A stretch of DNA of 64,000 bases. It comes from Amoeboaphelidium occidentale. Its lineage: Eukaryota. Positions 1-50,334 of the stretch are shown one piece after another (the first letter of the stretch is position 1; the number at the start of each line of letters is the position of its first letter). The position numbers and the translations under genes were made by a program. Under the pieces are notes generated by a model, which saw only the letters and a list, made by a program, of their open reading frames with translations, was not told the origin of the DNA and did not search any database. The stretch lies in NCBI GenBank assembly GCA_023515795.1, contig JALGPX010000041.1:1-64000 (forward strand). The letters are read 5' to 3'.

Positions 1-1219
1 GTTCTGCGTTTAAAGAGAGTTGTTCCTAAAAATCGGTCTTTCAGCTATTCAATAAGTACTGATGGCATCTCGCTACATTTGAACTTGAAAAAACAGACTT
101 CAAAATCAGAATCTACCATTGATGAATTCGGATACAAAACAGATGGCTCCAAGGAATACTCTCCGGTGGATTTAAAATATAGGACTGTAGTTGGTATTGA
201 TCCAAACAGAAAGGACTTATTCATGGCTTATGATGGTAAACACAAATTTCAAGTTACGGGCAAAGAATGGAGACAAATGGCGGGTATTACAGCAGCAAAG
301 AAGAAACGAGAGAATTGGTTGAAGAAACGAAATGACATTGTGAATGCAAATTCCAATGTACCTACATCAAAGGTATCCCATGTTNTCTACTATAGATGAG
401 TTTGGATACAAAACAGATGACTCCAAGGAATACGTTCCAGTGGATTTAAAGGATAGGACTGTAGTTGGTATTGATCCAAACAGAAAGGACTTGTTTATGG
501 CTTATGATGGTAAACAGAAGTTTCAGGTTACTGGTAAAGAATGGAGACATATGTCGGGTATTACAGCAGCAAAGAAGAAACGAGAGAATTGGTTGAAGAA
601 ACGAAATGACATTGTGAATGCAAATTCCAATGTACCTACATCAAAGGTATCCCATGTTTCGGATCTACATAATCATTTCTTTTATCTCTTTGCTCATTTG
701 AATTTATGGTTTGACTTTTATGGTTCCAGGCAATGGAGGCAGTTGCGAAAGAGATCAAGTATCAAACGACAACAAGCTCTTGATTTAATAGTGAATCGGA
801 TTATTGGAAAGGCTGAGAGGAAATGGTATCTTGGTCACAAAGGAGTTAATGCTAAGCATAGCCGGTCATACAATAATGTGTTTGTTGCTTTTGGTGGTAG
901 TCAGTTTAGTAGTACTTCTCGTGGACATCATCCGATTCCTAGGCGTTCATTGATCAATGCATTGAAACAGAGAAAGATTCCCATGAGACTTGTTGATGAG
1001 TTCAGAACAAGCATGCTTTGTTGTAAATGCAAGGAACCGTTACCAAAGAGGGGAATGTGGCACGTGAAACGATATGATAACTGCAACATCTTTTGGAACA
1101 GAGATGTCAATGCTGCAGTGAACATCAGAGAAGTTTTCATCTCAGTGAATGCATCCAAGGGAGTCAGGCCAGGAAAATTCTCAAGATCATACAAATTTTG
1201 TAGCTCAACCAAAGCTTAA
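1..1219 (+). mobile_element. Fanzor (eukaryotic TnpB-like RNA-guided endonuclease), 5'-truncated by the window edge; internal duplication and frame break at the N at 385
   Basis: Frame 1 is open from base 1 (VLRLKRVVPKNRSFSYSISTDGISLHL, Fanzor1-type TDG motif). RuvC-I VVGIDP (D 473-475), VAFGGSQF, RuvC-II VDEFRTSMLCCKC (E 998-1000), RuvC-III WNRDVNAAVNI (D 1103-1105); stop 1217-1219. Confidence 0.9.
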
Positions 1220-1356
1220 TTGCGGAGGGTCTTACGGAGTACATTGCTATTTTATAGCGTTTGTTACATATACCGAGTTGAGTAGTTGGAATTCCGCGTA
1301 TTTCAGTCTAGTGCTGAATAACGTAGCACAAAAGTGCTGACTACTTAAACTCTCAA
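1200..1356 (+). ncRNA. candidate Fanzor omegaRNA scaffold / element right end
   Basis: Lies directly 3' of the Fanzor ORF. Stems: 1275-1287 with 1339-1352, 1299-1306 with 1314-1320, AGCAC-AAAA-GTGCT 1325-1338, GCTAT-TTT-ATAGC 1246-1258. Possible pseudoknot GCGGA 1222-1226 with TCCGC 1293-1297. Ends at TCAA 1353-1356. Confidence 0.6.
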
Positions 1357-1428
1357 GTCAAAGTTATCGCAAGCAAGAACACAAAAAACATCTTAAGCAA
1401 GCTACAATGACAAAATGTCTATTCAGTG

Positions 1429-2229
1429 TTAGTCTTGGAAGAAACGTCCATGCATTTCTGTAGACAAAACATTAACGAGAACCTCAACCGGAGCATTACT
1501 AAAACACGTCGACGGATACACGTTTGTCCCCCACTTTGGATGTTTCAGCATAGAACAACATCCGGTTTGATGGAATTCATACATTAACAAACGCTGCGAA
1601 GCATGAACATCAGGATAATAGGAAGAGCCTCGATTCCCAATGAATGGATACCCAGATGCCGGATCTGTAAAATCTGCCCAATATCCCAATGACCGCAGTC
1701 TGTGACAAAGAGTAAGAGCAAATAGAAAGAACTTCTGCAGCAGCAAATCCTTCTCATGCTCGATTTCTGGGCCAGTACCAACCAGATCATACTTGGACTT
1801 CTGGAATACAGGGATTACGTTTACAGGTAAATCTCTCTTGAATTCATCATTCCCATTTGTAGCTGGAGCGTAAAACTCTGGAAATATTTCCTTTAGTTCT
1901 GACTTAAACCTGCCGGGCGGAGGCCTGTGGACCGAAAATTCAACAGAGACTTCAACTACGTCACCACAACTTAATTCTCTTGTGAGAGCTTTGCGTATCT
2001 CTGTAATCGATTTAATGTACTTGTAAAGTTCCAGCGGTACCATTTCAGTGGTAGCTGTGCCTTGTTCTTGCTCTTCTTGGGTCATGCTCTCAGGATCTTG
2101 CCTAAGTAGTGAACGCTTAATCTTGTTGGTCTCCTCCAACTCAGAAGACGTATAAGAAAGCAGGAACTTGAAACGCTTCCGTAAAGGCGGCTGTAGAATG
2201 GACTTGTTTCGGTTGTTATCGGTCATCAT
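1429..2229 (-). CDS. MMADHC: MMADHC/CblD cobalamin trafficking protein homolog
   Basis: GYWADFTDPASGYPF and GCCSMLKHPKWGTNVYPSTCFSNAP motifs; first ATG at 2229. Confidence 0.85.
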   Translation of the reverse strand: MMTDNNRNKSILQPPLRKRFKFLLSYTSSELEETNKIKRSLLRQDPESMTQEEQEQGTATTEMVPLELYKYIKSITEIRKALTRELSCGDVVEVSVEFSVHRPPPGRFKSELKEIFPEFYAPATNGNDEFKRDLPVNVIPVFQKSKYDLVGTGPEIEHEKDLLLQKFFLFALTLCHRLRSLGYWADFTDPASGYPFIGNRGSSYYPDVHASQRLLMYEFHQTGCCSMLKHPKWGTNVYPSTCFSNAPVEVLVNVLSTEMHGRFFQD

Positions 2230-2684
2230 TGTGAATATGTCTCGAGAGGTCAAAGTTAGAAAACAAGAACCTTGTACAATCGATCTTGGATCTTATTTAA
2301 GCGCGGAAATCTTTAAGAGCAAGTAAAACAATATATTATATGAGCTATAAAAATTGATCTATTTCAGGATCTTTGAATATGATACTCTGTTTAGTCGTTG
2401 TGTTCATACAGAGATGCAAAACAATTAGTCGAAGTAAAGAGATCATGACCTTGTCATCATTTTAACCAGCCCACTCACTTCGGCTCTAATCCGTTCGTCT
2501 AAATATGGCGCTGTCGCAAACCCTTTTGACATCTCCGCCCGCTACATTTCTCTGCATCCGATCACCAGAACCTTAGCGCCGTAAAGGACTTCCCCTTCTT
2601 TTCCTTGAAACACGCATATTTTAATCCGGAATTAAAATTACCGTAAGTTCCGGTGATATTCTTGACTCATCATGTGTAGCACGC

Positions 2685-4056
2685 ATGTTTCGTTTTAAAG
2701 ATAACCCAGCGCCAGAGAGCCAAAGACAGCGCTCGAATACATTACAACCTTCCTCAGTTTATGCTTACAGTATGCCTTACACTCCTCCATTAACACCCAT
2801 TAAAACTTCATTTGGGGGTCAGTCGATGGTGTTTAATGATTCTTCACAATTGGGAGTGGCTGGCGCAACAAACGGTGGCTTTGAGCAAGTGGCTTCCGAT
2901 GGTTTCCTGTTTAGAGGTAGTGGTGGCGCAATTGGTCATTCATCAGGTGGCAACACTACGGCTGACTCGATAAGTAATCTTCCAAGTTTAGAAGATTTAC
3001 TGGGTATACCATCGGTTGGTGGCTCAGCTGATTGTGGCAATGACGAGAACATGGCGCCTAATTGTATGAATGGCATGTCATTGGATGTTGCTAATAATGG
3101 TGCCTCTGCTAATAACATCTCTGTCTGTGGTAGAGATGATTTGTTGCAAGACAATTTTGATTTTGCTGTTAATAGTTCTAACATGTCTGAGTCGTTACTG
3201 TTGAGCGGTAACGAGCAGTTCATTAATAATGGCTTAACCAATGCGCTGGAAAATTCGGATGGTATCAAACAGATGGCGGCCAAAATGCGTAAATATGGTG
3301 TCCCTAGAAGGAGGCATTCTATGTTGGAAACTTTGGCTCCATCGCCTGAGCTGTTAGCTACACATTACATGGCCATGCTTTCTAGTCCAAGAAGATCAAG
3401 TAGTTTGCAGAATGCTACGGGTAGTATGCGTGGTAATGGGGCTTATGATGACGCTGGAACGTTGTTGGGCCATGAACAAAGAAACGCTGATGATGAGAAT
3501 GGCTTTCCTCAGTTTCATGGGATTTTTAATGATTATCATAGTTTTAATGGCAGTAATTTAGATGGGATTTACTTGAACGAGTTTCAAGGGGTCAATGAGT
3601 GCAGTTTTGATTCTGGTTCTCAAACTGTAATCAGTGACGAATGTTCTGTCATGCAAGGATTCGATGGCAGGGATAAAAGCCTGTTTTCTGGTAAAACAAA
3701 AAGAAAGAAGCTTGAAAAAGATGAAGTAATTTTCAAATGTGAGTACCCTGGATGTGGAAAGACTTTTGACAAGTTGCAGAGTTTCAAGTCTCATGAAACT
3801 TCTCACTCATCCGATCGTCCTTTTGCCTGTTCTCAATGTGATTTAAGGTTCAGAAGGAACCACGATCTGAAAAGGTTTTGTTTTTACAATTGCACAACTA
3901 ATGTTTAGACACGAGCGCATTCATGCTGGATACAAGCCGTATATCTGTGTTGTTTGTAACAAGTCGTTTTTGCGTTTAGATGCGTTGAACCGACACATGA
4001 AAGTCAATAACGGACAAGGTTGTAAGAAAGGTGCTCCAAAGAGATCAAGCAAGTGA
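2685..4056 (+). CDS. C2H2 zinc-finger transcription factor (3 fingers, Crz1-like C-terminus)
   Basis: CEYPGC..H..H and CSQC..RNHDLKR|HERIH across the 34-nt intron 3875-3908, then CVVCNKSFLRLDALNRH; stop 4054-4056. Confidence 0.85.
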
Positions 4057-12156: not shown

Positions 12157-13149
12157 CTATCTCATGACTTTGCGCTTTCGATACCACACGGCTTGACAGA
12201 TTATCATAATGTCGAATATCAAAGTGCCAAAACTTCCTAAAAGATATGGTAGTGTGCTTCTAAAGAACTTTTCATCCAATGTGGGTTGTCTCAATATGAT
12301 TTGCAAGCCATATGATATTGTTGAAGACAAAGTCAGTATGAACAACCCAATAGAAATTCCTTCAACGTCTTTTAAGATGTGATTAGTTCTAACTTGACCA
12401 ATTCGACTGCCAAAGTAGAATAATCCGGAACACCATGCAAGAACTTCGCCAATTATTCTCGCATAATCCTCTACTTCAGCTTCCGCATTGCATAATGGCC
12501 TTTTTGATAGTTCTGAAAGCTTTGACGTTGCAACAGGAATGCATAAACTCAAAGTTGTAATGACTGCAATCTGTATCACACTGTTTCTTCCTTTAAACCA
12601 TGGTGACCCTGAAGCACCATTACGCTGATCCTTTAAAAGTGGTGTTTCTTCAGTGCTTCTTGTAATTCTTTCGTCATAGAGTAGTTGATTTTGTGTATCA
12701 TTAGGAGTTGAGCACGATCCATCATAGTCTTCATCATCCTCATCGTTCTGCTTAACGTATAAATACTCGTTCACACCAGCCATTCTTCTATAAAAACGAG
12801 TGTAGTAAAAATACTGAAGAATAACAATCAGCTCTGTGATCACAAAGCACAGGCCCGTGTACTTTACTGTAGGGTACTGATTAGTCAAGAAAGCACCAAG
12901 AACATTTGATATATCGCCTAATAAGCATACAAACAGAAACTGTAGACTCAAACCATCAACAGATTTTCGTTTAAAATTCTTGTACAGCTGTGGAAAGAAC
13001 GCAACAAGAAAGCATATCACAGACATCATACCAAAGCAGAAGGCTGATATTTCTAGCGGAGTATAAACGCAATCTCTAAAGTATAATCCTATCCATTCCA
13101 CGTATCGTTTGCCGTCTTTGAATTCTGGGTCACACACACATTCCATCAC
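12157..13149 (-). CDS. PQ-loop vacuolar/lysosomal cationic amino-acid transporter (Ypq/PQLC2-like), paralog 2
   Basis: FFPQLYKNFKRKSVDGLS; second loop SRIGQ; LPYLLGS. Confidence 0.88.
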   Translation of the reverse strand: MMECVCDPEFKDGKRYVEWIGLYFRDCVYTPLEISAFCFGMMSVICFLVAFFPQLYKNFKRKSVDGLSLQFLFVCLLGDISNVLGAFLTNQYPTVKYTGLCFVITELIVILQYFYYTRFYRRMAGVNEYLYVKQNDEDDEDYDGSCSTPNDTQNQLLYDERITRSTEETPLLKDQRNGASGSPWFKGRNSVIQIAVITTLSLCIPVATSKLSELSKRPLCNAEAEVEDYARIIGEVLAWCSGLFYFGSRIGQVRTNHILKDVEGISIGLFILTLSSTISYGLQIILRQPTLDEKFFRSTLPYLLGSFGTLIFDIMIICQAVWYRKRKVMR

Positions 13150-13225: not shown

Positions 13226-14362
13226 TTAAAATTCTTCATATGGTGGCACTGAAGGCAATCTTACGTGATCACGCTTCATTATTAACTTTCTGAACTTGCT
13301 GATAAATGAATTATCCTTGTGGTTTCCATACATTACAGCCTGAGTGATTATGATCATGTCAAAAATCAGAGTGCCAATACTACCCAACAGGTAAGGAAAA
13401 GTGCTTCTAAAGAATTTCTCATCAATTGCTGGCTGTCTAATAAGAATCTGAAGACCATAAGTAACATTTGAGGAAATTGTCAGAACAAACAGAGCAATGG
13501 ATAATCCTTCCACGTCCTTCAATTTGTAATTAGTGATAATCTGAGGAATACGACTGAAAAAATACAATAGACCAGAAGACCATGCCAAAACTTCACCAAT
13601 AATCTGCGCGAATTCTTCCAAATCATCTTCAGCATTACAGAGAGGCAATTCAGACATTTGCATAACTTTGGATGATACAGCTGGAATGCAAATCGCTACA
13701 GCTGTTATGATCGCAATGTGTGTAAGTGTGCTGCTTCCTGCAGCGGAATACGGCCGATTAGCTGTTTTTGTGTGCAGATAAGATTCTCCATGCAATACTT
13801 TAAAATCAGAACTTCCCATTGATGCATCCTGAGGCTTCAACAGTGGAGTATGTTCTCCTGTAGTGGAACCATTCATATGTAAACTGACATGCGATCCACT
13901 CAGAAAGCTTTGATTGTCTTTTGGTGTTGAAGAAGAACCATCAAAATCGTCTTCCTCTTCTTCTTTTGACGTATTGAAGGGCAATGGCGTGCCTTTTGGT
14001 CCTTTATACACGTAAGCATAGTAAAAGTACTGCAATAGACTCAGAGCATCGCTGATCACAAAGTATAATCCCGTGTATTTGACTGTAGGGTACTGATTAG
14101 TGAGGAATGCACCAAACATGTTTGAGATATCCCCGAGTAACCAAGTGAGCAGAAATCCAAAGCTGAGGCCTTCCACTGTTTTACGCTGATAGTTCTTATA
14201 CAACTGAGGGAACAATGCAACAATGAACAGGAGAACAGAGATGATACCAAAGAAGAATCCGGATATCTCCAGCGGCGTATACACGCAATCCTTAAAGTAC
14301 ATTCCGATCCATTCCACGTAATGATGGCCATCTTTGTACACGGGGTCACACGTACAATCCAT
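13226..14362 (-). CDS. PQ-loop transporter (Ypq/PQLC2-like), paralog 1
   Basis: LFPQLYKNYQRKTVEGLS, SRIPQIITNY, FPYLLGS. Confidence 0.9.
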   Translation of the reverse strand: MDCTCDPVYKDGHHYVEWIGMYFKDCVYTPLEISGFFFGIISVLLFIVALFPQLYKNYQRKTVEGLSFGFLLTWLLGDISNMFGAFLTNQYPTVKYTGLYFVISDALSLLQYFYYAYVYKGPKGTPLPFNTSKEEEEDDFDGSSSTPKDNQSFLSGSHVSLHMNGSTTGEHTPLLKPQDASMGSSDFKVLHGESYLHTKTANRPYSAAGSSTLTHIAIITAVAICIPAVSSKVMQMSELPLCNAEDDLEEFAQIIGEVLAWSSGLLYFFSRIPQIITNYKLKDVEGLSIALFVLTISSNVTYGLQILIRQPAIDEKFFRSTFPYLLGSIGTLIFDMIIITQAVMYGNHKDNSFISKFRKLIMKRDHVRLPSVPPYEEF

Positions 14363-15171
14363 TGAAAAGCAGAAGGAAAATTTTTGAAAGTCGCTGATTG
14401 GGGATACTCGCAGATTTCAAAACTGCGATTAGGACAAGCAAAGGAAGTCAAACTGTGCAAGATCCCTGAATATCCAAGTAGCTGCTCTTAGCTTATTATG
14501 GGGGCTTTCACTACGTGCTATCAGATTCTATAGAAAAATCTTTGTTTTATCTCGACATCTGTGTTCGACTGCGCTACTTTAGACTTTGACAATAAGCAAC
14601 ATCAGTATCTTAGCATGTAACATTAAATAGCTCTCAGAACTCGCTCAATATTCGTGCAACCAGTGAAGCATGTCAAAAGAGACTATGATCACACGACACC
14701 GAAAGATCTCGCCAATATAATCCCTGCAAATAGGTGAACAGAGAGACAAGCTATGTGATCACAATATTCGAAGAAATAATCATAAGAACTCCTATAGGTC
14801 CTTAAGTGTCACGATCTTGTGGTATCTCTGCTGAAACCATGCCAGTTCATCAAGTTTTCGATGACANNNNNNNNNNNNNNNNNCATGTCAAAAGAGACCA
14901 TGATCACACGACACCGAAAGATCTCGCCAATATAATCCCTGCAAATAGGTGAACAAAGAGACAAGCTATGTGATCACAATATTCGAAGAAATAATCATAA
15001 GAGCTCCTATAGGTCCTTAAGTGTCACGATCTTGTGGTATCTCTGCTGAAACCATGCCAGTTCATCAAGTTTTCGATGACATTCTCCACGAATCAGAAAG
15101 CATCGTTGACCCCTTAGTTTGCGACTGCGCAATTTTTTCGTAATTCAAAAACCACTCAGCAGACAACGGTA

Positions 15172-25824: not shown

Positions 25825-27678
25825 ATGAACAACGAAAATACACCTGCAAATTTCATTGGGACTCTTAATAGACGCTCTTCTGTTGGTAACGGCAGCGGTG
25901 GCGGTGGCGGTGCCCCTTCAAAGAAGAATTCATTTAGCTTTGAATCTACAGCAGCAGTTAATAACAACTCTCCGAGTGAGTCTAATGAAGAAAAGCTAAA
26001 GTTAACGTACAATGCACAGATTCCGTTTACGAAGAATGGCGCAGAAGGAAGAATTAAATCTTTCAGTTTGGCTGATGCTTTTATTCGTGCTTGTTGGAAA
26101 TTATTAACTTTGAGTGGTTGGTTGTTGTACTTGAGTGTTTTATACTTTTTGGCAAGAACATTTTGGATTCACGCCACAGATGTCGAATGTGTTCCAAGTA
26201 AATTGAGCCTGGATGGNNNNNNNNTGAGTGGTTGGTTGTTGTACTGGAGTGTTTTATACTTTTTGGCAAGAACATTTTGGATTCACGCCACAGATGTCGA
26301 ATGTGTTCCAAGTAAATTGAGCCTGGATGGTGCAACGATGAATGTCATTTGTCAGCCAAAGAGTTTAAATCCTGGTTATGTTTATGGTTTGGATCAAGCG
26401 TCTGTGATTCTAATGTCAAGTTACCAGAATCCTTACTTGTTTTCTAGAAGCTCTGATGAAAGTCCGCCTGGTTTGTACGCATTCTCTGCTGATCAGAGGA
26501 AGACAAGGCGTATTTGGCCCCATGCGTCAGCTGGTCAAGTTCCGGAAGAATTGTATGGCAGTCAAGATTGTTCTTCTCCGCCTTATCCATACTTTAATCC
26601 TACGGCTATTCATTCACTGAAATTTAACTCTACTTCTTATGCTGTTGTTACTACTGCTTATTCTCGTCCTATGCAGTACGACGCTTCTTGGTTTGATTTG
26701 TCTTCTAGACGAGCAGTTGAGATTTTTATTCTGACTTTTCCTGAAGATGCTCATGGTGATATTGACAGAATGACGACTACGTGGGTTGGATGTGCACCGC
26801 TAAATCATATTGGATTTGTGCCGACTGCTGTTCAATTGGTTTCAAGGAATGAAACATATTCTGATCTTATTGTTGGGTTTCAAGGAAAGATTGCTAATGG
26901 TAAAGGATCTTTGTCTACTTTTGAAAAGGCATGGCTACATGGAGGTGAAGAGTTGTATGATGACGAGGGTAAGACAGCAAGCCCATTTGCAGAGAAAGCT
27001 TTTGGAGATCCAGAGAAGCACAAGTTTCAGTTAACTCTCTCTAAAATTGTTGACGCTTTTGAGGGTTCTTTGACTCCTGTGTACAAATTACTTGCATTTT
27101 GGCTTGGTTCTAATGAAGGTTTTCTCGTCGATTTCATCCCAAATCAAGATGCTGTTGATTATGAGCCTCGTGTATTTGGTTCCGCTGCGTTTGATATTTC
27201 TGGAATTTATGCTACAAAGAAGCGTTTGTATTTCACAAAGCATATGAATTCAGAGTTCTGTTCAGCAAGCTTTGCAGATCCAGAAGAGATTAAATGCGTC
27301 TATATTAATGATGAAGGAAAGGCAAAAAAGGGAATGTTTGATACTGGCTCTTTAGAATCTCTCACTTTCTGGAAACGTGAGAATAAGTTTATTCTTTTGA
27401 AATCCGACTCTTATACCAAGTCTGAACTTTGTGCTGCTTCAGGTTTAGCACATTGTTCTATTGGTTGGAAACTATATTCTATTGATCCACGCACAATGGA
27501 ATACAGCAAGATCTTTGAACATGATGGTTCTGCATTTGGTGCAGCTTCATCCATTTCCATGTACAAGAGTAAGTTATTTTCATTTGCAATAACAAACTAA
27601 TTATGTTTAGATAAGGTGATCATTGGCTCAAAGAATTCTGATAGGTTTGCGCATGTTTCAATTAAGCAGATTAAATAA
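25825..27678 (+). CDS. membrane-anchored, divergent paraoxonase/arylesterase-like beta-propeller protein
   Basis: One TM helix; FNPTAIH and AVEIF; C-terminus DGSAFGAASSISMYK|NKVIIGS resembles the PON C-terminus; includes an N-gap duplication. Confidence 0.45.
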
Positions 27679-33802: not shown

Positions 33803-34322
33803 TTGCTCATGATCAACAGTTTCACCCGTTTCTTGATCATCCTCATAATATCTTCTAGCAGCAAGTTGAGGTACTTTCGGTAATCCTTCAGAGTTTAAGA
33901 TCTTAATTCTAGGAGGGATGTACCTTTTTCTTTTGAATGGCGATGGTTTGAAGTGAGCATAAGGANNNNNNNNNNNNNCAAGTTGAGGTACTTTCGGTAA
34001 TTCTTCAGAGTTTAAGATCTTAATTCTAGGAGGGATGTACCTTTTTCTTTTGAATGGCGATGGTTTGAAGTGAGCATAAGGAAACTAGAGGTCTTGGCAA
34101 GTGCAAACAAACCTGCCGTTTCAAGCGAGGACTTTCATGGCGCAAAACTTTCCGGTTCAAAATGCGATACACCAGCGAAAGATGCCCCTGCAGTCAAACC
34201 ATACGCACATAGACCGACTTTTTCAACTCGATGTTCGATGGCACGCTTGCGATTGGCGGACTCTTTCGTGGCACACCTCTGTAACGTGCCAGAGTTTTCG
34301 TTTGAGTAATCTAATTATTCGC

Positions 34323-39536: not shown

Positions 39537-42500
39537 TCAAACAACTACTACAGCAGCAGCATTGCCATTGTTCTCCTTCTGCTCATTAATTAAAGCTTCC
39601 TGTTCCTGTTTCTCAAACAAATACTCTGCCATCTGATCACCAGAACTTATCAACAGATTCTTCTTGGAAGTCCGAACAACATCGCCAGAAACACTAATGA
39701 TACCGTAAGCTTGATTCTTTACGGATTCTCTCAAAGAAAAATCTTCCAGCTTGAATGAAACTAATGCATTGCCTCCCATCGCTGTGACATGCGCTTTCAG
39801 TACTGCATCAATAGTTGTCTTGAACATATTTATGAATCGACCATAATCATCGTCCTCTGAGTATTCTACAAAATGCGAGCCCAGCTGATGATGCATACTC
39901 AGATCTTCCTTGATAAAATGTAAAGAAATTCTTCCTAGATTATCCACAATCTCAGTTGCAGTGCATGGCAGATATGAATTTGGTGTAATAACAATAGGAG
40001 AAGGATTATGCAAGATAGTCCCAGAAGCAGACAACCCTTTGTCTTTCACGCCAGTAACTTCTTCTTCTTTAAACTGTCCCAGTACTGCTGCTGTGAGTGT
40101 TATCGTTATCAAATCTTCTTTTTGCATTTCAATTCTTACTCGAATAGAATGTACCAAGCAACGCAAATAATGCCCACTGCTATTTTTTGATGAATACAGC
40201 AAATGTCCCTTCAATTCCTCATACAATTCCTTAAATACCAATGCCAATTCTCTGTTTGGATGCCGAACATTTGGATTTAATTCTGCTTGTTTCACGAGAA
40301 CAACAGTTTCTGTACAGAACTGTGCATGATTTCCATTATACGTTCCTAGTTGAATCTGCAGAAAATCATCTCCATACTTGGAATCTTTACGGCTATGATA
40401 ATGCTGTGGCAAATACTCTGTAGTACACAACTGAAATCGATTGAAATCCTGTTTTGCTTCTTCACTATCATTCTGATAATCATCATCGTCAACATATACT
40501 GCCATTAAATCTTCATCAAAATCTTCATCGTTGTTGTTGTTGTTTGTGGTATGATAATCATCGTCAATATGCACAACGATCGAAGTTGTATTCGCAGCCA
40601 TCCTGAAATTAGAAATATTATTCATTTCAGAATCTGCTCCAGATTCTTCGTTACTAATAACAGCTTCCTGTTCTTCTTTACTACTCTTCAGCTTTGCCAT
40701 TTCCTTGTATTTTATATCATGCTCTCTTGCCAAAGATTCTAATCTATCAATTCTATCAGAGCATTTCTGTGCCAGCGGTTCCATTCTATTCTTTCCCCCA
40801 AATCCCGTTCTAAAAGTGTTTGTATTGCTGGACGAAAAGATTTTTCTTGGCAGGGTCAATTCATACAGACAACATCCTGTGCCGTATGCATATGCCAGTA
40901 CTAGACAATCCTTTCCAGAACCTGAAGAATCAATATTCTCTGCTGCTGCTACAATCTTGTACTCAACTCTATACCCAAACAATGCATTATATCCTTTCAG
41001 CCTCATCTGGAACAATAGCTGCCTATAAAGCTCATAATCTATAAAAGGCAACATGTCTGATAATTGCTGAGCAGTTGAATATTCTTGATTACTACTGTTA
41101 TTATTAGCAGTGTTGCTACTAGTATGATAATTAGCACCAGAACTGGAAGCAGTAGTGTTGTTAGTACCAGCATTAACAGCACTAGCGCCACCAACTCCTC
41201 CTACACCACCGTTACCACTCATTAAGCTTGCATTGTGGTGATGGTGATGATAATGATGTCCACCATAATAATTATTACTACTTCTCAGCAAATACTTTCT
41301 AGTCTTGTAACAATAAGCCTGCACCAGAGAACTTTCTAAACCACTGCTCTGACTACTCAATACAGTCATTCCATTCGCAATCGCATCATTGCTTGGAAAC
41401 TCCGTACTCACAATCAAAACTTCCGGAACCGAATTCGATGAAGATTCTGTATTCTGCGTCTTAAAATGACTACACTTCCTGCATTTAGTATTAAACTGCA
41501 TAGGAAAAGGTGTATTGTTATTAAAAGAATAAGATGAAGAAGCATTAGAGGTAGCATAAGGAACATGCAACACACAATCACAACCATTATCATTACTACT
41601 ACTACTACTACTACTACCACTCTTCAAACTCGATGCAATCTTGACTGCCGTGCCTTGTACACACAGCAACATTAAATCATCATCTATACTCACTGTTTCT
41701 GTATAACCTAGAACACAATTACAATTCAATACTCTACAATGCTGTCTCAATTCATCCCTCAGTTCATCCAACCATTGTTCCAAAACAGAATCAGAAGTAT
41801 TAGCAGCAGCAGCAGCCGCCGCAACCGCTGCAGCAATCGGAGCAGGATTATTAGTAGTTGTGGCATTTGCGTCATCATCTCCTACTCCAGCACCAGCAGC
41901 AGTCGATACAATATTAGCAGTCTGTTTCTGCAATTGCATCTGTAACTGCTGCTGTTCCTGTACCAGTTTAACACTCTTTGCAGCAATTAAACCACCATAA
42001 TGAGAAACTGAGTGGTGCGAAGAAGTAGAAAGCAGTGGAATAAAATCAGCAGCAGAATTACTATTTCCAGAAGTACCAACAGCAGCAGCAGAAGATGAGT
42101 TAAAGCATGTACCTCTCAATCTCCCTGTAATCATTCCTTGCTTCTTATCAAAATCATATGATTGTTCAATACCATAAACTGAATCACATCCTTTTGCTAA
42201 ACATTCTATAGAGAGAATCTGTTGTAATTCCGATGATATTTGATACAACAATAATTGTCTTTGATAATTAGAAAGTTTAGGAGATCTGAAACTATCCTTC
42301 CAATTATATTCTGGATCATCAACTTCCACGAGCGCTTCAATCAGACTTGTATTTGAATTTATACCATTTACGGAAGGAGTACTTAAAGAATTATACAATC
42401 TCACCAGAGGGATGTCTTCACTGAAATATTCTACTCTTAATTGTACTAATAATTCTCCTCTCAGAATATCCGTAGTTAGTGAATCATACCAAACCAAATA

Positions 42501-42947
42501 ACCACAAAACTCACCAAAATACTTTCCTGCTGCGCCACCACCAATCACAGAATTACTACTGCTACTGCTACTGCTACTTCCACTTAAAATCTGTAGTAAA
42601 TCTAAGAGAATAAATCCTCTGAATTCACCCGTTGTTGACGTCACAGTTGTACATTCATATAATTTCATCTCCATCAACATTCCACCCAATCCATCCTGAA
42701 TAAATTCATACTTAAAATCTTCCTGGTATTGTGGCTGTACTCCTCTTTTTGTTTGTGTTTTGTTTACAGTGTCATTTAATTTAACTTCAATAAAGGATGC
42801 AACACTGGAAGTATAATTATTAATGACTGCAATAGTATTCTGTTGATTAGTTGTAGTTGTAGTTGTAGTAACTGCGTCTGTGTTTGTGTTGGAATCTATA
42901 AATAGATTTCTTCCTTCGATTATTTTTAGTTTTATAATGTATGGCAT
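39537..42947 (-). CDS. C2CD5: C2 domain-containing protein 5 (C2CD5/CDP138) homolog, rich in homopolymer insertions
   Basis: N-terminal C2 (KLKIIEGRNL), IEALVEVDDPEYNWKDSFRSP..SN.QRQ, WLDELRDE, GYTE, VPEV, LPFIDYELYRQL, HVTAMGGNAL..QAYGIISVSGD. Confidence 0.85.
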   Translation of the reverse strand: MPYIIKLKIIEGRNLFIDSNTNTDAVTTTTTTTNQQNTIAVINNYTSSVASFIEVKLNDTVNKTQTKRGVQPQYQEDFKYEFIQDGLGGMLMEMKLYECTTVTSTTGEFRGFILLDLLQILSGSSSSSSSSNSVIGGGAAGKYFGEFCGYLVWYDSLTTDILRGELLVQLRVEYFSEDIPLVRLYNSLSTPSVNGINSNTSLIEALVEVDDPEYNWKDSFRSPKLSNYQRQLLLYQISSELQQILSIECLAKGCDSVYGIEQSYDFDKKQGMITGRLRGTCFNSSSAAAVGTSGNSNSAADFIPLLSTSSHHSVSHYGGLIAAKSVKLVQEQQQLQMQLQKQTANIVSTAAGAGVGDDDANATTTNNPAPIAAAVAAAAAAANTSDSVLEQWLDELRDELRQHCRVLNCNCVLGYTETVSIDDDLMLLCVQGTAVKIASSLKSGSSSSSSSNDNGCDCVLHVPYATSNASSSYSFNNNTPFPMQFNTKCRKCSHFKTQNTESSSNSVPEVLIVSTEFPSNDAIANGMTVLSSQSSGLESSLVQAYCYKTRKYLLRSSNNYYGGHHYHHHHHNASLMSGNGGVGGVGGASAVNAGTNNTTASSSGANYHTSSNTANNNSSNQEYSTAQQLSDMLPFIDYELYRQLLFQMRLKGYNALFGYRVEYKIVAAAENIDSSGSGKDCLVLAYAYGTGCCLYELTLPRKIFSSSNTNTFRTGFGGKNRMEPLAQKCSDRIDRLESLAREHDIKYKEMAKLKSSKEEQEAVISNEESGADSEMNNISNFRMAANTTSIVVHIDDDYHTTNNNNNDEDFDEDLMAVYVDDDDYQNDSEEAKQDFNRFQLCTTEYLPQHYHSRKDSKYGDDFLQIQLGTYNGNHAQFCTETVVLVKQAELNPNVRHPNRELALVFKELYEELKGHLLYSSKNSSGHYLRCLVHSIRVRIEMQKEDLITITLTAAVLGQFKEEEVTGVKDKGLSASGTILHNPSPIVITPNSYLPCTATEIVDNLGRISLHFIKEDLSMHHQLGSHFVEYSEDDDYGRFINMFKTTIDAVLKAHVTAMGGNALVSFKLEDFSLRESVKNQAYGIISVSGDVVRTSKKNLLISSGDQMAEYLFEKQEQEALINEQKENNGNAAAVVVV

Positions 42948-43049
42948 TGCTTCTCTTTTGTAAAAATTGTTGTTGGATCGCTTTGAGAAAATTGTTCTTG
43001 TTCACGAATCATGATTGAGTGAAACAGGAAACGGAGAGTCTATTAACTA

Positions 43050-46000
43050 TGAAGCAAGTAAAGAAAACCCACAATAAATGGCTGATAATCAGCAGTAAGC
43101 GTAACAAGAGAGACAGCTGTAAATTAAAATAAAGCCAAAAGAAACAAAACCACGATGTTTGATTCTGGGGGGAAAGAAAAAGAAAAACCACAATACTCTT
43201 GTATAGTTCCACCTATAAATCCAATAGAACCAGAACCACAATGAGCAACATAAGTTTTTTTTACAAAACCCACTTAATAATTAAATTTTTGTTCCACGTT
43301 GTAGACTTGAGAAGGTTTTCTATAAAGCCAAAAGAACCAAAACCACAATAAATGGATAAGAAGATATAGAAAAAGGAAACCAAATGTTTGTCCCCCGAGT
43401 TATACCACATGGTAGATGGCATAACTACATGTTTCCACATCCAAAAGAAACAAACCATAATGACAGGTTTTTCATTCTAAAACCCCCCGCATTCAGCAAC
43501 AGCACTTGATTTACAGAGCCCTGATAATCAAACCACGTAAAATCAAACTTTAACAATATCCAAGACGTATTGAGCAAGAAGGGTTTGAAGGAAAACCACC
43601 TTTCTCTTTCAATAATTTTAACAATTATCAATTCATCGCTAGAGAAATGCCATAATTAAGGTGATCATATTCACAACAACAACCACCACCATGTATCTAA
43701 GAGTCAATGAACCGACCATGAACAAAATAATAAATAAACCACAAGCAGAATCCATTTCTTTGGGTAAAAGAGCCACACAGAAAAACGACGTGGGAGGAAC
43801 GAGAATCATCATACCAAATAATCTTGGAACAACAAGACACAAAAGGCTTTTGAAAGAAACAACAAAGCACAACCATGAACACGTAAAAGATTTAAATCCA
43901 CACACGAAAAGTTCACATTGACTCTCGTGTAATCGAAAACCACAATTCTATAGGCTCAATCATCAATCTAGAGATCAAGACGTTTTCAGCGCAGAAACAT
44001 GAACAGATTAAAACAAAAGACGAAACCATAACGGAACAAGAACACCACATAAAGCACTATCCTTGTTGGCCACAATGCTTCCTTTAAGATTTTAAAACAC
44101 AAAACCAAAAAGCCACCTTTGTAAAAGAACAATCAAACCACCATGTCGGAGGGACTTCATTGTTTTTTAACCAACACACGAAACAACCACATTTTTCTTG
44201 ATTTAGTAATGAAACAAAACCATAAACATATCAATAATAAAAACCCACAATGTAAATTGGGTTATACCAAACTTTTTAAAGAACCAAAAGAGAAATACCA
44301 CATTTCAAAACCACAAACGCGGAACCACCACCGTCTGGTGGGCCTGAACGCCACAAGCACATCCGCATAGGAAGGAAGGAAAAAACCCACATTGGTTTCA
44401 ATGATATAATACCCACGCTCAAAAACGAAGAACACCACATATCATTGTTAAACCAACCAACCACGATTCATCCGCATACCCATCAAAACAATTACAAATA
44501 AACGAATAATAAAAACGACAATAATCCTGAAGAACAATTAAAAACCATACTATCCACAACAGGAAAACTAAAAGCAAATCTATACTCTAAATCATCTGAT
44601 AGTATAAAAATTCTCGGTGTGCCACAATTCTCTCGTTCAGACTGCGCCACCCCTTGAAACAACTTGAACTTCGAACAGAAAGAGTCTGATTGTTGCATAC
44701 AGAAGATGTTACTCAAAAAAGATTCCGCTGTAATGATGTCTGTCTCAGATATCGAAGGAGGCACTGTGTAGACGAAACAGAAACAAGAATTTATTAACAC
44801 AAGGAAGAACTACAAAAACCACGAATAATGATTATAAGTAGGCAGTTAGAAACATTATGATAAAAACAAGAATAAAGCCAAAAGAAACAGAACCACATAA
44901 CATAGTTCGTTGTATTACAAGAAAAGAAAACCTCATTCAGTTCGGTGGACCACAACCGATTTGGAAAGCCAAAAGAAAGAGAACCACATGCCACCAGGTG
45001 GTCTTACTAGAACCAGCACCACTTTCAGGCATGCCCCGATTGCAACAATAATCACGCTATCGATTAATTCTTCAACCGAAAAGAGAAAAACCACATAACT
45101 TTTGTTTTGTGCAAAGAAATCAAATCAAAAATGTTGACATTGATGCCAAGAGCAGCATCACAACCACACTTGGATTTCAACTAGGCAAAACCATTCTTTT
45201 AAGTGAAGGCAAGACTGTACACCGGAACCACCACATAGACCTGGTTTTGGTTGTCAAGCAAAATCCCATAATTAACCCTTGGAGTTCGAGGAAGCCCACA
45301 TTTTTTTTGAAGATTTTTAACTGGAAATAAAACAAAAAACCACAATATGCCTTATTTGACGCAGGCCATAAATAACCAAACAAGCACATGCTGTGTCTCA
45401 AGAGCATCAACGAGTCGATCACGAACGACACAAAGGCAACCACCATCAAAAACTCTAACTGCACATACCAAAATCGATCTCCTGCTCCCAGCAACCACGA
45501 TTTTCCATGTTCGAGTTACTTATCTGACTCGAGCTGAAACCAAAGGAACCACATGGGGTTTAAAACATTTACAGAAGTCATTACTTTAAACCATACAGGT
45601 AAACAAAGAAGAACCCCAACCACGATGTATACTTTCACTGACTGTACCAGTAGATTATACAAGAAAAAAGTGCAAGAAGCCCCAAATCAACTGGGTACAG
45701 AACTAATAAAACCACAATAATCTACATGTTGCGTAGGAGTTTGAACACAATATTGTTCGGCAATATATATATACAAAAGAAACAGAACCACATGTTTTGG
45801 ACTTCGGACAAGACGAACCCCAATTATTTCATTGTTTGATGCCTTACAAGACCCCAGTTAGATGGAGGAAAGTAGACAAAGCAGGATCACATGTACGGCT
45901 TTAAAGAGAGAGAACAACCAAATTCCCAAAACCTCATCATCATTCTGACTTACAAGAAGAAGAACCACATTTCGATCTACAGACATCATAGAATCGAAAT

Positions 46001-47480
46001 CGCCGTATCATATTGAAGATCCATTTCGACAGAAATGCCGATGAGCTCAAGCTAGTCTGAAACGCAGGACAGGACATAATAGGCAATAGAAGAAAGCAGA
46101 ACACCCACATATCAGCCAATAATCATCATGAAACCATTACTCTTTCGCGATTTAGGCAAGCGACCAAATCAATTGGATACGGATAAAGCAAACCACAATG
46201 ACACAACATGTTATTTCCATTTAATAAAACCAAAAGAGAAACAACCACATGTCGCAATTCAGCCAACCAGCCACGATGCATCCGCTGACAGTGCATTGAA
46301 TTACAAGAAAACGAATAATACAAACCACAATGGGAACTCAAAGTGAGATCCATTAAAACTAAAAGAGAAAAAACCACATGTATACATGTGACCAATGTGA
46401 AACCACCACATAGCCTTGTCGATGCTCACTCATTCAACATCAATAAACAACCAGAAAACAGCAAGGAAGAACCACGTGGATCTAAACCGATTATTTCATC
46501 TCAGAATAGACTCACAACAACCAACCACGATTTGTTGTGTTTTCTTCTTCAAGGATAAATCATTCTCTTGAAACATTGAAAGAATTAAAAAAACCCCAAA
46601 CGAAAAAACCACATTGCTGCATGATGAACTCTACCATATATGCCTATACTATTGAAGAACCAAATCATACCATTAAGATATTAAAAAACCACAATTTTGT
46701 TTTCTCTTGGCCAAACAGCAACAACCACCTTCACGTTCTGCACGTTAAGAACACAAAAATATAATAAAAGCAACAGATGAAACCACATGTTTCAAGCTTT
46801 GTTGAAGCATAAAAAGCAACAACAGAAGACGAACACCACATGTCCTTGCTTCTACCTCCGCCACAGTATTTTATAACCCAACATACCACCACCATTGTTA
46901 TAAGATCACTTAACCACAAGAATGGAATCTTTCGTGAAGCAAAATCATAGAGATACAACTGATATAAAAACCACCATGCAACTATGGTAAGATAACTTTA
47001 AAGAAGCAAAAAAGAGAAACACCACATGACATAACAGACGAGACATAGAACAACCACCATGGAGGTTGGTACTTTGCAACTCCACATTTATGAGTACAAT
47101 GGTCGAACAAAAAAACCACAATGACATGGTAGTTATGAGCAAATTTCAAAGAAACCAAAAAAGAGAAACACCACCACCACCACCACCACCATCATCATCA
47201 CCATCACCATCACCACCACGTTTGATCCAGATGAGTAAAACCCCACCATAAGTCTTGTTAAAAATAACGCAAAACCAATAAACATTAAAGCAACAATATA
47301 AAACCACATCGTTTGATATGGCGCAAGTACCACAATTATACATATTCGACCAAGAAAACCACCATACTGTTGTCTCTCAGGTTGCCAACCACCATCCCAT
47401 TGTAACAAAAAATAAATAAAACCATTAAAGACACAAATAATATAAACCACAATATTCTCTATATAAACGACTCAACCAAC
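43050..47480 (+). repeat. gene-free array of degenerate, strand-polarised A-tract+ACCAC(A/G)(A/T) motifs with unique spacers (candidate centromere or small-RNA locus)
   Basis: Dozens of AACCAC/ACCAC on the + strand and almost no GTGGT; longer unit (T)AAAGCCAAAAGARA.A.AACCACAT at 43130, 43323, 44873, 44965, 46225, 46354; no credible ORF. Confidence 0.8.
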
Positions 47481-47601
47481 CATAAATTCTATAATAAAAA
47501 CACTTCTAATTCACTAATATCATGAAAAAAAAGTTGTGGTATAGAATGTGCCACAATGCTTTCTATCATGCTGCGCCACCGCATGAAACAGCAACCAGAA
47601 C

Positions 47602-47758
47602 CTCCACTCCACTCCACTCCACTCCACTCGAGCGAGCGAGCGAGCGAGCAAGGAACAACCATACTCAGTTACATCATAATAAACCTTCCATTATTCAATC
47701 TATTCTAATTTCAAACTCCTTTTTATCTTTTTTAATTATAATAATAATAATAATAATA
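47602..47758. repeat. microsatellite cluster (CTCCA)n, (GAGC)n, (ATA)n at the right border of the island
   Basis: Directly visible tandem repeats. Confidence 0.9.
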
Positions 47759-47762
47759 GTAG

Positions 47763-48113
47763 ATGATTGAAAAGAACATTCTACAAAACACCCACCAAAA
47801 CACCCAACTGTAATTCTTTTTTAATCTTTTTTAATAACTTATAACTAACTTCTTCTTCTTCTTCTTTTTCGGTGTGTACAGGAGAACTGCTTATAGTCTG
47901 TTGATGGGAGTTGCTGCCGGTGTTTTAGGTTTAGAAGGATTACAAGGAATTCTATTCTATTTACTAGCATCAGTGTATCTATCAGCTATACTCTACTTCT
48001 TCCAGACCTCTACTACCACAAAAACTGCTATCTTCACAGACGGATTAGTTTCAGCTGCACAATCATATGTTCTATTCTGGACGCTATTTTACGGCATTGT
48101 TCACATTTATTGA
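47763..48113 (+). CDS. EMC6: ER membrane complex subunit 6 (Rab5ip family)
   Basis: GVAAGVLGLEGLQGILFY...SYVLFWTLFYGIVHIY; intron ~47810-47881; start uncertain. Confidence 0.88.
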
Positions 48114-48158
48114 TTAATAACAACAATAATAGTAACAATAGTAGTAATAAACAACTAA

Positions 48159-48748
48159 TTACTTTGAAATCAACTCAAATTTAAATGTGACTTGAGGCAT
48201 TGATCCAGTCTCTGCTAGAACTGTTACAGGACATCCCATCAATACATCCAAACACCCTCTCAAGACACCACAATGCAAAGCCATACTCTTTAGCGACGAA
48301 CCATTGTTATTATTAGTAGTACTATGTTTAAACTGATTATCCTGTACAACATACATTCCCTTATGATTAGTACGTAGATTATCAACCTGTTTATCATAAA
48401 GAAATGAGTAAACATCCTTACAAAGGAATTTCATTCTGTCCAGATTATCTACAAAGAGAAGGGATTTATCTTTAGTGAGTCTAAATAAATTAATAAATAA
48501 ATAAAAGAGAGATATCAGTCAGTCAGTCAGTATAATTAATTAATAAAATACTTTTGAATTAGTTTAGTTCCAACCCTGTAGCCAATTGCTTCCAATCTAT
48601 CAAATGATGATGAATCTCCATTGGAATAGGAATAGAATCTCATGATTTCAATCAAGAGTAATTCATACAGAGTTTTGTCAGTGTAATGTTGAGTGTAAAG
48701 GGAAGAGTTTTGATTCTTTAGAGTTGATTCAATTGAGTTTGAAATCAT
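48159..48748 (-). CDS. TRS33: TRAPP complex subunit Trs33/TRAPPC6
   Basis: LEAIGYRVG, MKFLCKD, KQVDNLRTNHKGMYVVQD, CGVLRG. Confidence 0.88.
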
Positions 48749-48937
48749 CTTATTATTATTATTATTGAAAAGAAAGAAAAAGAGTTTTAAGGGGAATTTA
48801 AAGTAAAAATAAATCTATTTATAGATTATATATTCCTTCTAAATACAACTTAAATTAATTATAAGAAATCCCATCCCTTTTGAAGAACGCCACAATTTCC
48901 ATCTACTCTACTCCAATCAGTTTCTTCTTTTAATAAA

Positions 48938-50334
48938 ATGATTCTTTTGGAACCAACAAATAAAATCTTAACTGAACTTTTACAGAGTAAATTTGAAAGG
49001 TAATTAGTCTCTCTCTCTCTCTCTCTCTCTCTTTGTGTCTCTCTGTGTGTATAAAAACCCATTCTAACTTCTTTAGCCCTCAGGATAGGATTCAAACTAC
49101 TTTGGCTGATTATGATGGTGTCACTTATACTGTTTCTACTCCACAACAACAACAACAACAACAACAACAAGAAGGTGCTACTCAAAGAAGTTCTATTATT
49201 AGGATTGCAATGCATATGAAGTGTTTTAATTCTGAANCTTTTGGAACCAACAAATAAAATCTTAACTGAACTTTTACAGAGTAAATTTGAAAGGTAATTA
49301 GTCTCTCTCTCTCTCTCTCTTTGTGTCTCTCTGTGTTTATAAAAACCCATTCTAACTTCTTTAGCCCTCAGGATAGGATTCAAACTACTTTGGCTGATTA
49401 TGATGGTGTCACTTATACTGTTTCTACTCCACAACAACAACAACAACAAGAAGGTGCTACTCAAAGAAGTTCTATTATTAGGATTGCAATGCATATGAAG
49501 TGTTTTAATTCTGAATTGGTAAAGTATGGGGCTTCTTCATTGTTACAGAAGGAGTATGGTTCTTATTTAAAACAACAGGAACAGGATGAAGGCGGTGGTG
49601 GTGGTGGTGGTGGTGGTAGTGGTGATGTTGTGTTGGAGATTGATGTTGAATCAGTTCATAAGGATGCTAGAGAAGATTTGATTAGAAAAGTTTCTCTATT
49701 GAAGACTAATGCAATGAGTGCAGTTTTTGAGAAGGCATTTAATGATCAATTATCTGGTAGTGGTAGTGGTAGTGGTAGTGGTAGTGGTAATGAATTCATG
49801 GTGGTTCATTATAGGGATGAAGAATCCATCTTTGTCAAGGCGTCTTCTGATAGGGTTACTGTAATCTTTTCTACTGTGTTTAGGGATGAGACTGATGGAG
49901 TATTTGCAAAGGTGTTTTTGCAGGAGTTTGTGGATTGTAGGAAGCAGACTAGTTTGCAGAATGCGCCACAAGTACTTTATACTAATAAGGAAGCGCCTAT
50001 GGAGTTGAGGGGTAGGAAGGATTTGAAGGAGGGAGAGAATGTAGGCTATGTAACATTTGGTAAGTCTGCATTGAGTTTAATTTATTAATGTTGTATAGTC
50101 CTCTTCCCGAGACACTACGAGAAGCCTCAGCAACGCACTGCGACCGTTCAGTTGGTGCAGTACTTTAGGGATTATTTGCACTATCACATCAAGTGTTCAA
50201 AGGCGTATATGCACTGCAGGATGAGGGCAAAGGTTGAGAGTTGGTTGAAAGTGTTGAATCGTGCAAAGCCAGAGTTTGATGCAAAGGATAAGGAGAAGAA
50301 GACTGCTAGTGGAAAGACGTTTACAAGAAAGTGA
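48938..50334 (+). CDS. ARPC2: Arp2/3 complex subunit ARPC2 (Arc35), with polyQ/polyG/GS insertions and an N-gap duplicate
   Basis: [58 protein letters not shown]. Confidence 0.95.

Follow-up and report, generated by a model that had tools for sequence, protein, structure and literature searches.

Probable 3' part of a multi-copy Fanzor1 transposon copy next to the MMADHC gene of the aphelid Amoeboaphelidium occidentale

In the Fanzor1 protein SpuFz1 of Spizellomyces punctatus, the Mg-binding residues are D383, N385, E541, and D606 (Saito et al. 2023, PMC10432273), and the omegaRNA combines a 75-nucleotide (nt) scaffold, located after the stop codon and before the right-end repeat, with a 14- to 15-nt guide taken from the flank. 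Fanzor proteins are marked by the RuvC-I motif DP(G), usually in the form DPG, and by a RuvC-II Glu at an alternative site, six residues ahead of the first CxxC; in classical TnpB, the RuvC-II Glu precedes the zinc finger by about 50 residues (Yoon et al. 2023). Fanzor1 is characterized by a TDG motif within its WED domain (Yoon et al. 2023), and an earlier motif reads D-X(125,275)-[TS][TS]-X-X-C4-X(5,50)-RD (Bao & Jurka 2013). Here we analyzed a 64,000-nt stretch of the Amoeboaphelidium occidentale assembly GCA_023515795.1 (contig JALGPX010000041.1, positions 1 to 64,000, forward strand; hereafter, the window). Its positions 1 to 1352 very probably represent the terminal 1.35 kb, on the 3' side, of a single copy of a multi-copy Fanzor1 transposon, the protein of which is a predicted omegaRNA-guided DNA endonuclease (Table 1).

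The catalytic residues of this protein are preserved. A preliminary description of the window, made from the sequence, had reported an intact RuvC triad and had listed a TDG motif, the Asp of GIDP, the Glu of DEFRTS, and the Asp of NRDVNAA; all of these were located, and the three acidic residues are retained at the positions of D383, E541, and D606 of SpuFz1. The Asn of GIDPN aligns to N385, so that all four Mg-binding positions are represented (the SpuFz1 numbering assumes a tag offset of 394 for chain 8gkh_P). SpuFz1 itself has DPN at this site, as does the window protein. Conservation was examined in an alignment (A2) of 73 sequences, which included the two coding pieces of the window and 67 of 165 fetched proteins; 65 of these came from a phmmer-derived list of 153 (a nonexhaustive pick of proteins of about 350 residues or more), to which P0002 was added. 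The only invariant column of A2 was the Asp of GIDPN (D311 of the paralog P0001), and the Pro of DP, the Thr and Gly of TDG, the Gly of AFGG (G451 of P0001), and the Glu of DEFRTS (E486 of P0001) were conserved in at least 90% of the sequences.

Among the features by which Fanzor1 is recognized, we found RuvC-I DPN, an alternative RuvC-II Glu with no Glu at the classical site, RuvC-III RD, and the TDG of the WED domain. The AFGG strand appears to occupy the canonical RuvC-II Glu position; it had been described as AFG..F, which needs correction, as the actual string is AFGGSQF with three residues between the Gly and the Phe. The published marks of Yoon et al. and of Bao and Jurka are all present in the window sequence with the exception of the zinc finger. 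The Bao and Jurka motif matches the window protein once the third zinc ligand is left free, and the D-to-TS spacing of 177 lies inside the 125 to 275 range. A strict regular expression of the Yoon type matched 35 of the 153 fetched proteins (many were fragments or had other spacing) and was not used as a test of family membership.

Table 1. Positions of the features of the Fanzor1 locus and its flank in the window
Feature	Position	Strand	Remarks
Contig piece A	1-384	+	Frame 1, open past the window start; end of WED domain and RuvC-I
TDG of FSYSISTDG (WED domain)	58-66	+	Frame 1; separated by the joint from the remainder of the gene
GIDPN, RuvC-I Asp and Asn two residues on	193-207 (frame 1) and 467-481 (frame 2)	+	Aligned to SpuFz1 VIDPN
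Single N, scaffold joint	385	.	Between pieces A and B
Contig piece B	386-1219	+	277 codons and TAA stop (1217-1219), intronless; RuvC-I to C-terminus, including TNB zinc ribbon
AFGG	887-898	+	Glu-less strand in the putative place of the RuvC-II Glu of classical TnpB; Fanzor arrangement
DEFRTS, alternative RuvC-II Glu	995-1012	+	Separated by six residues from the Cys that opens the first CxxC; aligned to SpuFz1 DEYKTS
TNB zinc finger	1019-1084	+	CCKC (1019-1030) ... YDNC (1073-1084)
NRDVNAA, RuvC-III Asp	1097-1117	+	Aligned to NRD of SpuFz1
3' noncoding tail to the putative right end (...CTTAAACTC)	1220-1352	+	133 nt after the stop codon
Structured terminal segment, candidate omegaRNA scaffold	1275-1352 (78 nt)	+	Predicted three-way junction closed by the last 16 nt of the element
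Would-be omegaRNA guide flank	1353-1367	+	By analogy with SpuFz1, provided that the RNA extends past the right end by about 15 nt
MMADHC, single-copy host gene	1429-2253	-	PF10229, E = 1.1e-28; convergent with the Fanzor gene
Zinc-finger open reading frame	2685-3908

Assignment to Fanzor1 was supported by several kinds of comparison. The Pfam family PF07282 (Cas12f1-like TNB) was recognized on 386-1216 with E = 1.7e-9 (38.1 bits; cut-off, 26.3), so the motifs are more than a chance resemblance. A sequence search of the PDB with the 277 residues of the window alone returned PpFz1 (E = 3e-4) and SpuFz1 (E = 1.3e-3). With P0001 as the query, phmmer retrieved 949 matches at E <= 1e-3, 214 of which were at <= 1e-10, among 1.84 billion representatives. 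The profile built from A2 matched the Fanzor1 structures over nearly its full length, with E values of 3.1e-59 for SpuFz1 (profile positions 24 to 646 of 696), 3.5e-50 for GtFz1, and 7.4e-45 for PpFz1. An AlphaFold2 model of P0001, computed with A2 as input, had a mean predicted local distance difference test (pLDDT) value of 89.8 and a predicted TM-score (pTM) of 0.84. When this model was compared with the PDB by Foldseek, Fanzor1 structures took all of the first seven ranks (TM-score, 0.52 to 0.63; E = 5e-15 to 3.7e-10), followed by ISDra2 TnpB (E = 8e-6; TM-score, 0.26).

The same comparisons bear on whether the gene is instead a Fanzor2, or a prokaryotic TnpB present through contamination or recent transfer. 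Fanzor2 and some TnpBs also have the alternative Glu and a TNB domain (Yoon et al. 2023), and both occur here. The A2 profile, however, matched mimivirus Fanzor2 (9B0L; E = 1.2e-13) at positions 571 to 630 only and the TnpB and Cas12f structures (E = 1e-8 to 1e-3) in the last ~60 positions only, against the full-length match to Fanzor1; the TM-score to TnpB was low, the Fanzor1-specific TDG is present, and the flank carries ordinary eukaryotic genes. No full-length likeness to Fanzor2 or to IS607-type TnpB was found in these comparisons, the likeness being confined to the TNB part (TM-score to 9B0L, 0.22), and we consider an origin of this kind highly improbable. The aphelid family is thus Fanzor1 by sequence profile, by fold, and by published catalogue label. 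This agrees with the preliminary description, which had proposed a Fanzor nuclease with motifs typical of Fanzor1 and had named a failure to group with TnpB/Fanzor, or the lack of a RuvC/WED fold, as grounds for abandoning the proposal; the family profile and the fold of the paralog both match Fanzor1. Its guess of a poorly sampled fungal-branch host was also apt, as the aphelids are a sister lineage of fungi and the relatives retrieved bear the name Amoeboaphelidium occidentale.

The Fanzor family of this aphelid is already known, as catalogue rows only. The Supplementary Table 1 published with Saito et al. (2023; PMC10432273) contains 38 Amoeboaphelidium rows (A. occidentale and A. protococcarum), and 18 of the 23 rows examined carry the label FZ1. 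Among these, KAI3660383.1 is listed as FZ1, node357. Because this sister copy, which is P0001 in our set, is already catalogued as FZ1, the window gene is of a known kind and its novelty is low. The table lists representatives, and the accession of the window gene itself is not among them. Two supplement files of Jiang et al. (2023) contained no Amoeboaphelidium entry, and no main text naming Fanzor and Amoeboaphelidium together was found among the papers searched (a search that did not extend to the supplementary files of Yoon et al. 2023).

The preliminary description had treated positions 1 to 1219 as one gene stretch. Instead, frame 1 is open over 1-384 and frame 2 over 386-1219, with a single N between them, and a 273-nt segment is present twice (93.0% identity between 112-384 and 386-658). 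The window holds 99 N in all, in several short runs including position 385, and must therefore come from a scaffolded assembly. In sequencing run X1, one contig has the unduplicated form, joining 105 directly to 386 with 5 other letters between, and the 384/386 junction was bridged by none of the 8 X1 pieces listed (44 further pieces were distributed across four runs). The segment is also not repeated in any other family protein spanning it in the family alignment A1, in which piece A corresponds to columns 445 to 572. From the contig without it, the lack of a listed bridging piece, and the single form in other proteins, we infer that the duplication is likely to represent two overlapping contig ends that were joined by one N and that originated from two different copies of the repeat.

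A genuine tandem duplication within the coding sequence would disrupt the gene through a frameshift. In favor of this reading, the window sequence as given holds both segments, and the deposited model P0158 spans the repeat and carries the repeated peptide. P0158 is a GenBank model of A. occidentale ("hypothetical protein, partial"); it starts 15 nt into the window and matches 16-381 and 398-1216. But the lone N coincides with the junction, the end-to-end overlap of the two pieces is what overlapping contig ends would give, and the X1 contig and the other family proteins lack the repeat, so that a true duplication is improbable. Further runs of N at 14867-14883, at 26217-26224, at 33966-33978, and from 36066 onward mark additional scaffold joints, and gene models crossing them may be no more reliable than the one at 385.

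The element is multi-copy. Eleven distinct gene models of A. occidentale belong to the family (P0001 to P0004, P0160, P0156, P0158, P0159, P0165, P0167, and P0089), several of which are fragments or fusions to unrelated sequence (e.g., P0003). Gap-free alignments over 277 residues of piece B with P0001, P0159, and P0160 showed 93 to 96% identity; P0001, a single-exon model of 558 residues, was 92.8% identical to 386-1216 over all 277 residues. In X1, the summed contig depth was ~870 over 481-880 and 107.9 over the flank at 1361-2400, both values being sums over contigs and not copy numbers. No other copy was found within the 64-kb window by blastn or tblastn, and two scans of metagenome contigs for DNA of other copies gave 47 and 351 pattern matches, none of which was confirmed by tblastn. 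Oligo-dT RNA from a biofilm metagenome (X19) yielded two 151-nt contigs matching at ~95 to 98%, at 772-922 (8 other letters) and 953-1103 (3 other letters). We did not count them as evidence of expression, since their source was not a culture of the host and a match does not show transcription; they hint, weakly, at transcription of a related copy somewhere in the natural environment.

Differences among the copies fall mainly at third codon positions. Between the two overlapping 273-nt pieces, 14 of 19 differences were at codon position 3, and the affected codons were synonymous in 12 cases and nonsynonymous in 6. The same tendency was seen in frame 2 among the variants listed for other copies (22 of 27 at position 3; 17 synonymous and 10 not). 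Because the differences are mostly of this type, the copies have diverged under constraint at the protein level.

The full-length proteins of the family comprise ~726 to 758 residues (A1 has 758 columns, 32 of which are an insertion peculiar to P0004). Since the window covers only the last ~314 of these (A1 columns 445 to 758, i.e., the end of WED, RuvC-I/II/III, and the TNB zinc ribbon), the "compact" Fanzor of the preliminary description cannot be upheld: the paralogs exceed even SpuFz1 (~638 residues). The upstream ~430 codons lie outside the window. The assembly likely breaks at the window start, given that the model P0158 is partial and begins there, and the upstream sequence of this locus is thus not simply retrievable.

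Several side observations concern the family as a whole. The N-terminal ~200 residues of the full-length paralogs, upstream of the part aligned to solved Fanzor1 structures, contain a basic stretch and a knuckle-like motif C-x2-C-x4-H-x8-C (residues ~68 to 86 of P0004 and ~38 to 55 of P0002; also in P0165), on which Pfam gave only a weak NZF-like match. Similar C-x2-C...H...C motifs occur near the N termini of several other aphelid FZ1 rows in the table of Saito et al. (2023). A 44-nt stretch at 881-924 (coding FVAFGGSQFSSTSRG) had a far higher X1 summed depth (~3400), and contigs in X1 and X2 carried it with unrelated sequence on both sides; it is likely common to other Fanzor1 families of the genome. 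Two far more divergent proteins of A. occidentale, P0007 (1366 residues; 32% identity to P0001) and P0009 (588 residues; 37%), are likewise labelled FZ1 in the Saito et al. table (PMC10432273), which indicates that the species holds several Fanzor1 lineages.

The right end of the element was placed from contigs. A 7397-nt contig of X1, which is single-copy and has 1 other letter, starts at 1323, and because a unique contig built from assembly words of 31 letters can extend 30 nt into a repeat, the last base shared among copies should lie near 1352. Other copies are represented by contigs whose agreement with the window ends at 1327 and 1355 (X1), 1329 and 1343 (X3), and 1352 (X2); positions 1361-1600 are uncovered in X2 and X3. 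The right end is thus probably at ~1352. Folding of 1270-1352 gave -28.3 kcal/mol (z = -4.55), and none of 200 shuffled sequences folded as well. Longer segments were unremarkable (z = -1.68 for 1180-1356 and -0.92 for 1060-1356), and as these are indistinguishable from shuffles, only the last ~80 nt stand out. An X3 contig covering 944-1326 had 8 differing sites and one deletion in 1213-1271 and at most one differing site in 1272-1326. A search of Rfam with 900-1500 gave no match at E values up to 1.

By analogy with SpuFz1, we predict that 1275-1352 is an omegaRNA scaffold and that ~1353-1367 would serve as the guide. In the mechanism that we propose, RNA from the right end of the element (the last ~78 nt) would act as the scaffold, with the following ~15 nt of flank as the guide. 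The resulting ribonucleoprotein would cut a site that matches the flank and lies next to a target-adjacent motif, e.g., the empty site. Such cutting may help the element persist, as shown for TnpB.

Several points weigh against this reading of 1-1352 as part of one Fanzor1 copy. Positions 1-384 and 386-1219 may derive from different copies; the fold model and the catalogue label belong to the paralog P0001, not to the window's own protein; the depths are contig sums and not copy numbers; and the longer folds at the right end do not differ from shuffles. In addition, the third zinc ligand of the window copy is Tyr (TAT, 1073-1075), which leaves three of the four Cys, and the copy has two private changes, a Trp where 9 of 9 others have Cys and a Ser where 8 of 8 have Gly. 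The preliminary description had noted a CxxC; the first pair (CCKC) bears this out, and the second (YDNC) is not a CxxC. The replacement of Cys by Tyr may impair the window copy. Every contig from the four runs has G at position 1074, which encodes Cys, and the site is Cys in five and Tyr in three of the eight family proteins that cover it (the window's model, P0001, and P0159). The PF07282 domain was recognized above the Pfam cut-off although only three of the four Cys of the C4 finger are present.

The zinc ligand change and the two private substitutions could mean that the window copy is a dead relic, i.e., a 5'-truncated or broken Fanzor1 that has lost its nuclease and persists as repeat DNA. 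Its 5' part is not assembled at the locus, the GenBank model is flagged as partial with the upstream ~430 codons missing from the window, and several paralog models are themselves fragmentary or fused. Such a fate would be compatible with the family assignment and would concern only the activity of this locus. However, the 277 codons contain neither a frameshift nor a stop, all four catalytic residues are retained, and the differences between copies are mainly synonymous; the truncation may reflect an assembly edge rather than biology, and because three of eight copies share the Tyr, it is not a private mark of decay. We regard a dead relic as a substantial possibility, though somewhat short of an even chance. 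It is doubtful, as a complete proposal, that the aphelid family represents a Fanzor1 element active at present, with a short omegaRNA scaffold (~78 nt) at its right end and a CCHC-type knuckle in its N-terminal extension. Were this correct, the spread of Tyr copies would imply that a CC-x-C site is tolerated by the finger or, alternatively, that copies can multiply with no need of their own nuclease.

The preliminary description had placed the insertion just past the 3' end of MMADHC, and the Pfam match and convergent orientation of that gene agree; 76 nt separate its stop codon from the putative right end, and X1 depth was flat at 107.9 over the MMADHC flank. The left end of the element is outside the window. 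Among 15 open reading frames of at least 300 residues downstream of the zinc-finger frame at 2685-3908, no Pfam match to a transposase was found, and the matches were to ordinary eukaryotic genes. Two adjacent PQ-loop repeat frames on the minus strand (12157-13149, E = 1e-26; 13226-14362, E = 8e-36) are either tandem genes or one gene split by an intron. G+C content is low (0.34 to 0.38) over 42001-50000, where GC skew falls to -0.29 and AT skew rises to 0.30 at 44 to 48 kb, and there is no open reading frame of at least 300 residues between 42947 and 52537.

With Fanzor1 nucleases being an established class and aphelid members having been catalogued in 2023, these results have little import beyond annotation. 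A "hypothetical protein, partial" can now be named, and its deposited model P0158 is seen to cross an assembly joint and to carry a spurious repeated peptide. The putative right end and the candidate short omegaRNA are available for testing an aphelid Fanzor.

A close, catalogued relative of the window copy is KAI3660383.1 (P0001), which comes from the same species and has the same motifs, including the Tyr of the zinc finger, at 92.8% identity over 277 residues; it represents a different locus and a different copy and lacks the private Trp and Ser. Of the proteins with solved structures, SpuFz1 (8GKH and 9CEU-9CEZ) is the best match both by profile (3.1e-59, full length) and by fold (Foldseek E = 5e-15; TM-score, 0.63). 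It shares F..SI.TDG, DPN, DE[FY][RK]TS, and NRD with the window protein, and its 75-nt omegaRNA scaffold resembles the 78-nt structured end described here, which is a predicted fold. The two nevertheless differ considerably: identity in the structural alignment with the P0001 model is just 18 to 20%, and the aphelid family is ~90 to 120 residues longer than SpuFz1 (whose ~638 residues also depend on the tag offset) and has the N-terminal C-x2-C-x4-H-x8-C extension. GtFz1 of Guillardia theta (9CER; profile 3.5e-50, Foldseek E = 1.3e-12) and PpFz1 of Parasitella parasitica (9CF0; profile 7.4e-45, Foldseek E = 1.7e-11) also match over the full length, with lower TM-scores (0.53 to 0.57) and other insertions and lengths. 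ISDra2 TnpB (8EXA and 8H1J) and mimivirus Fanzor2 (9B0L) have the RuvC and TNB core and the zinc ribbon in common with the window protein, but the profile matches (~6e-4 and 1.2e-13, respectively) extend over the last ~60 positions only, with TM-scores of 0.22 to 0.26. In classical TnpB, moreover, the RuvC-II Glu is ~50 residues upstream of the zinc finger (Yoon et al. 2023), as opposed to six residues before the first CxxC here. The working principle expected for the window element would be the one that it shares with TnpB and Fanzor2, namely, an RNA from the right end that guides cleavage of DNA.

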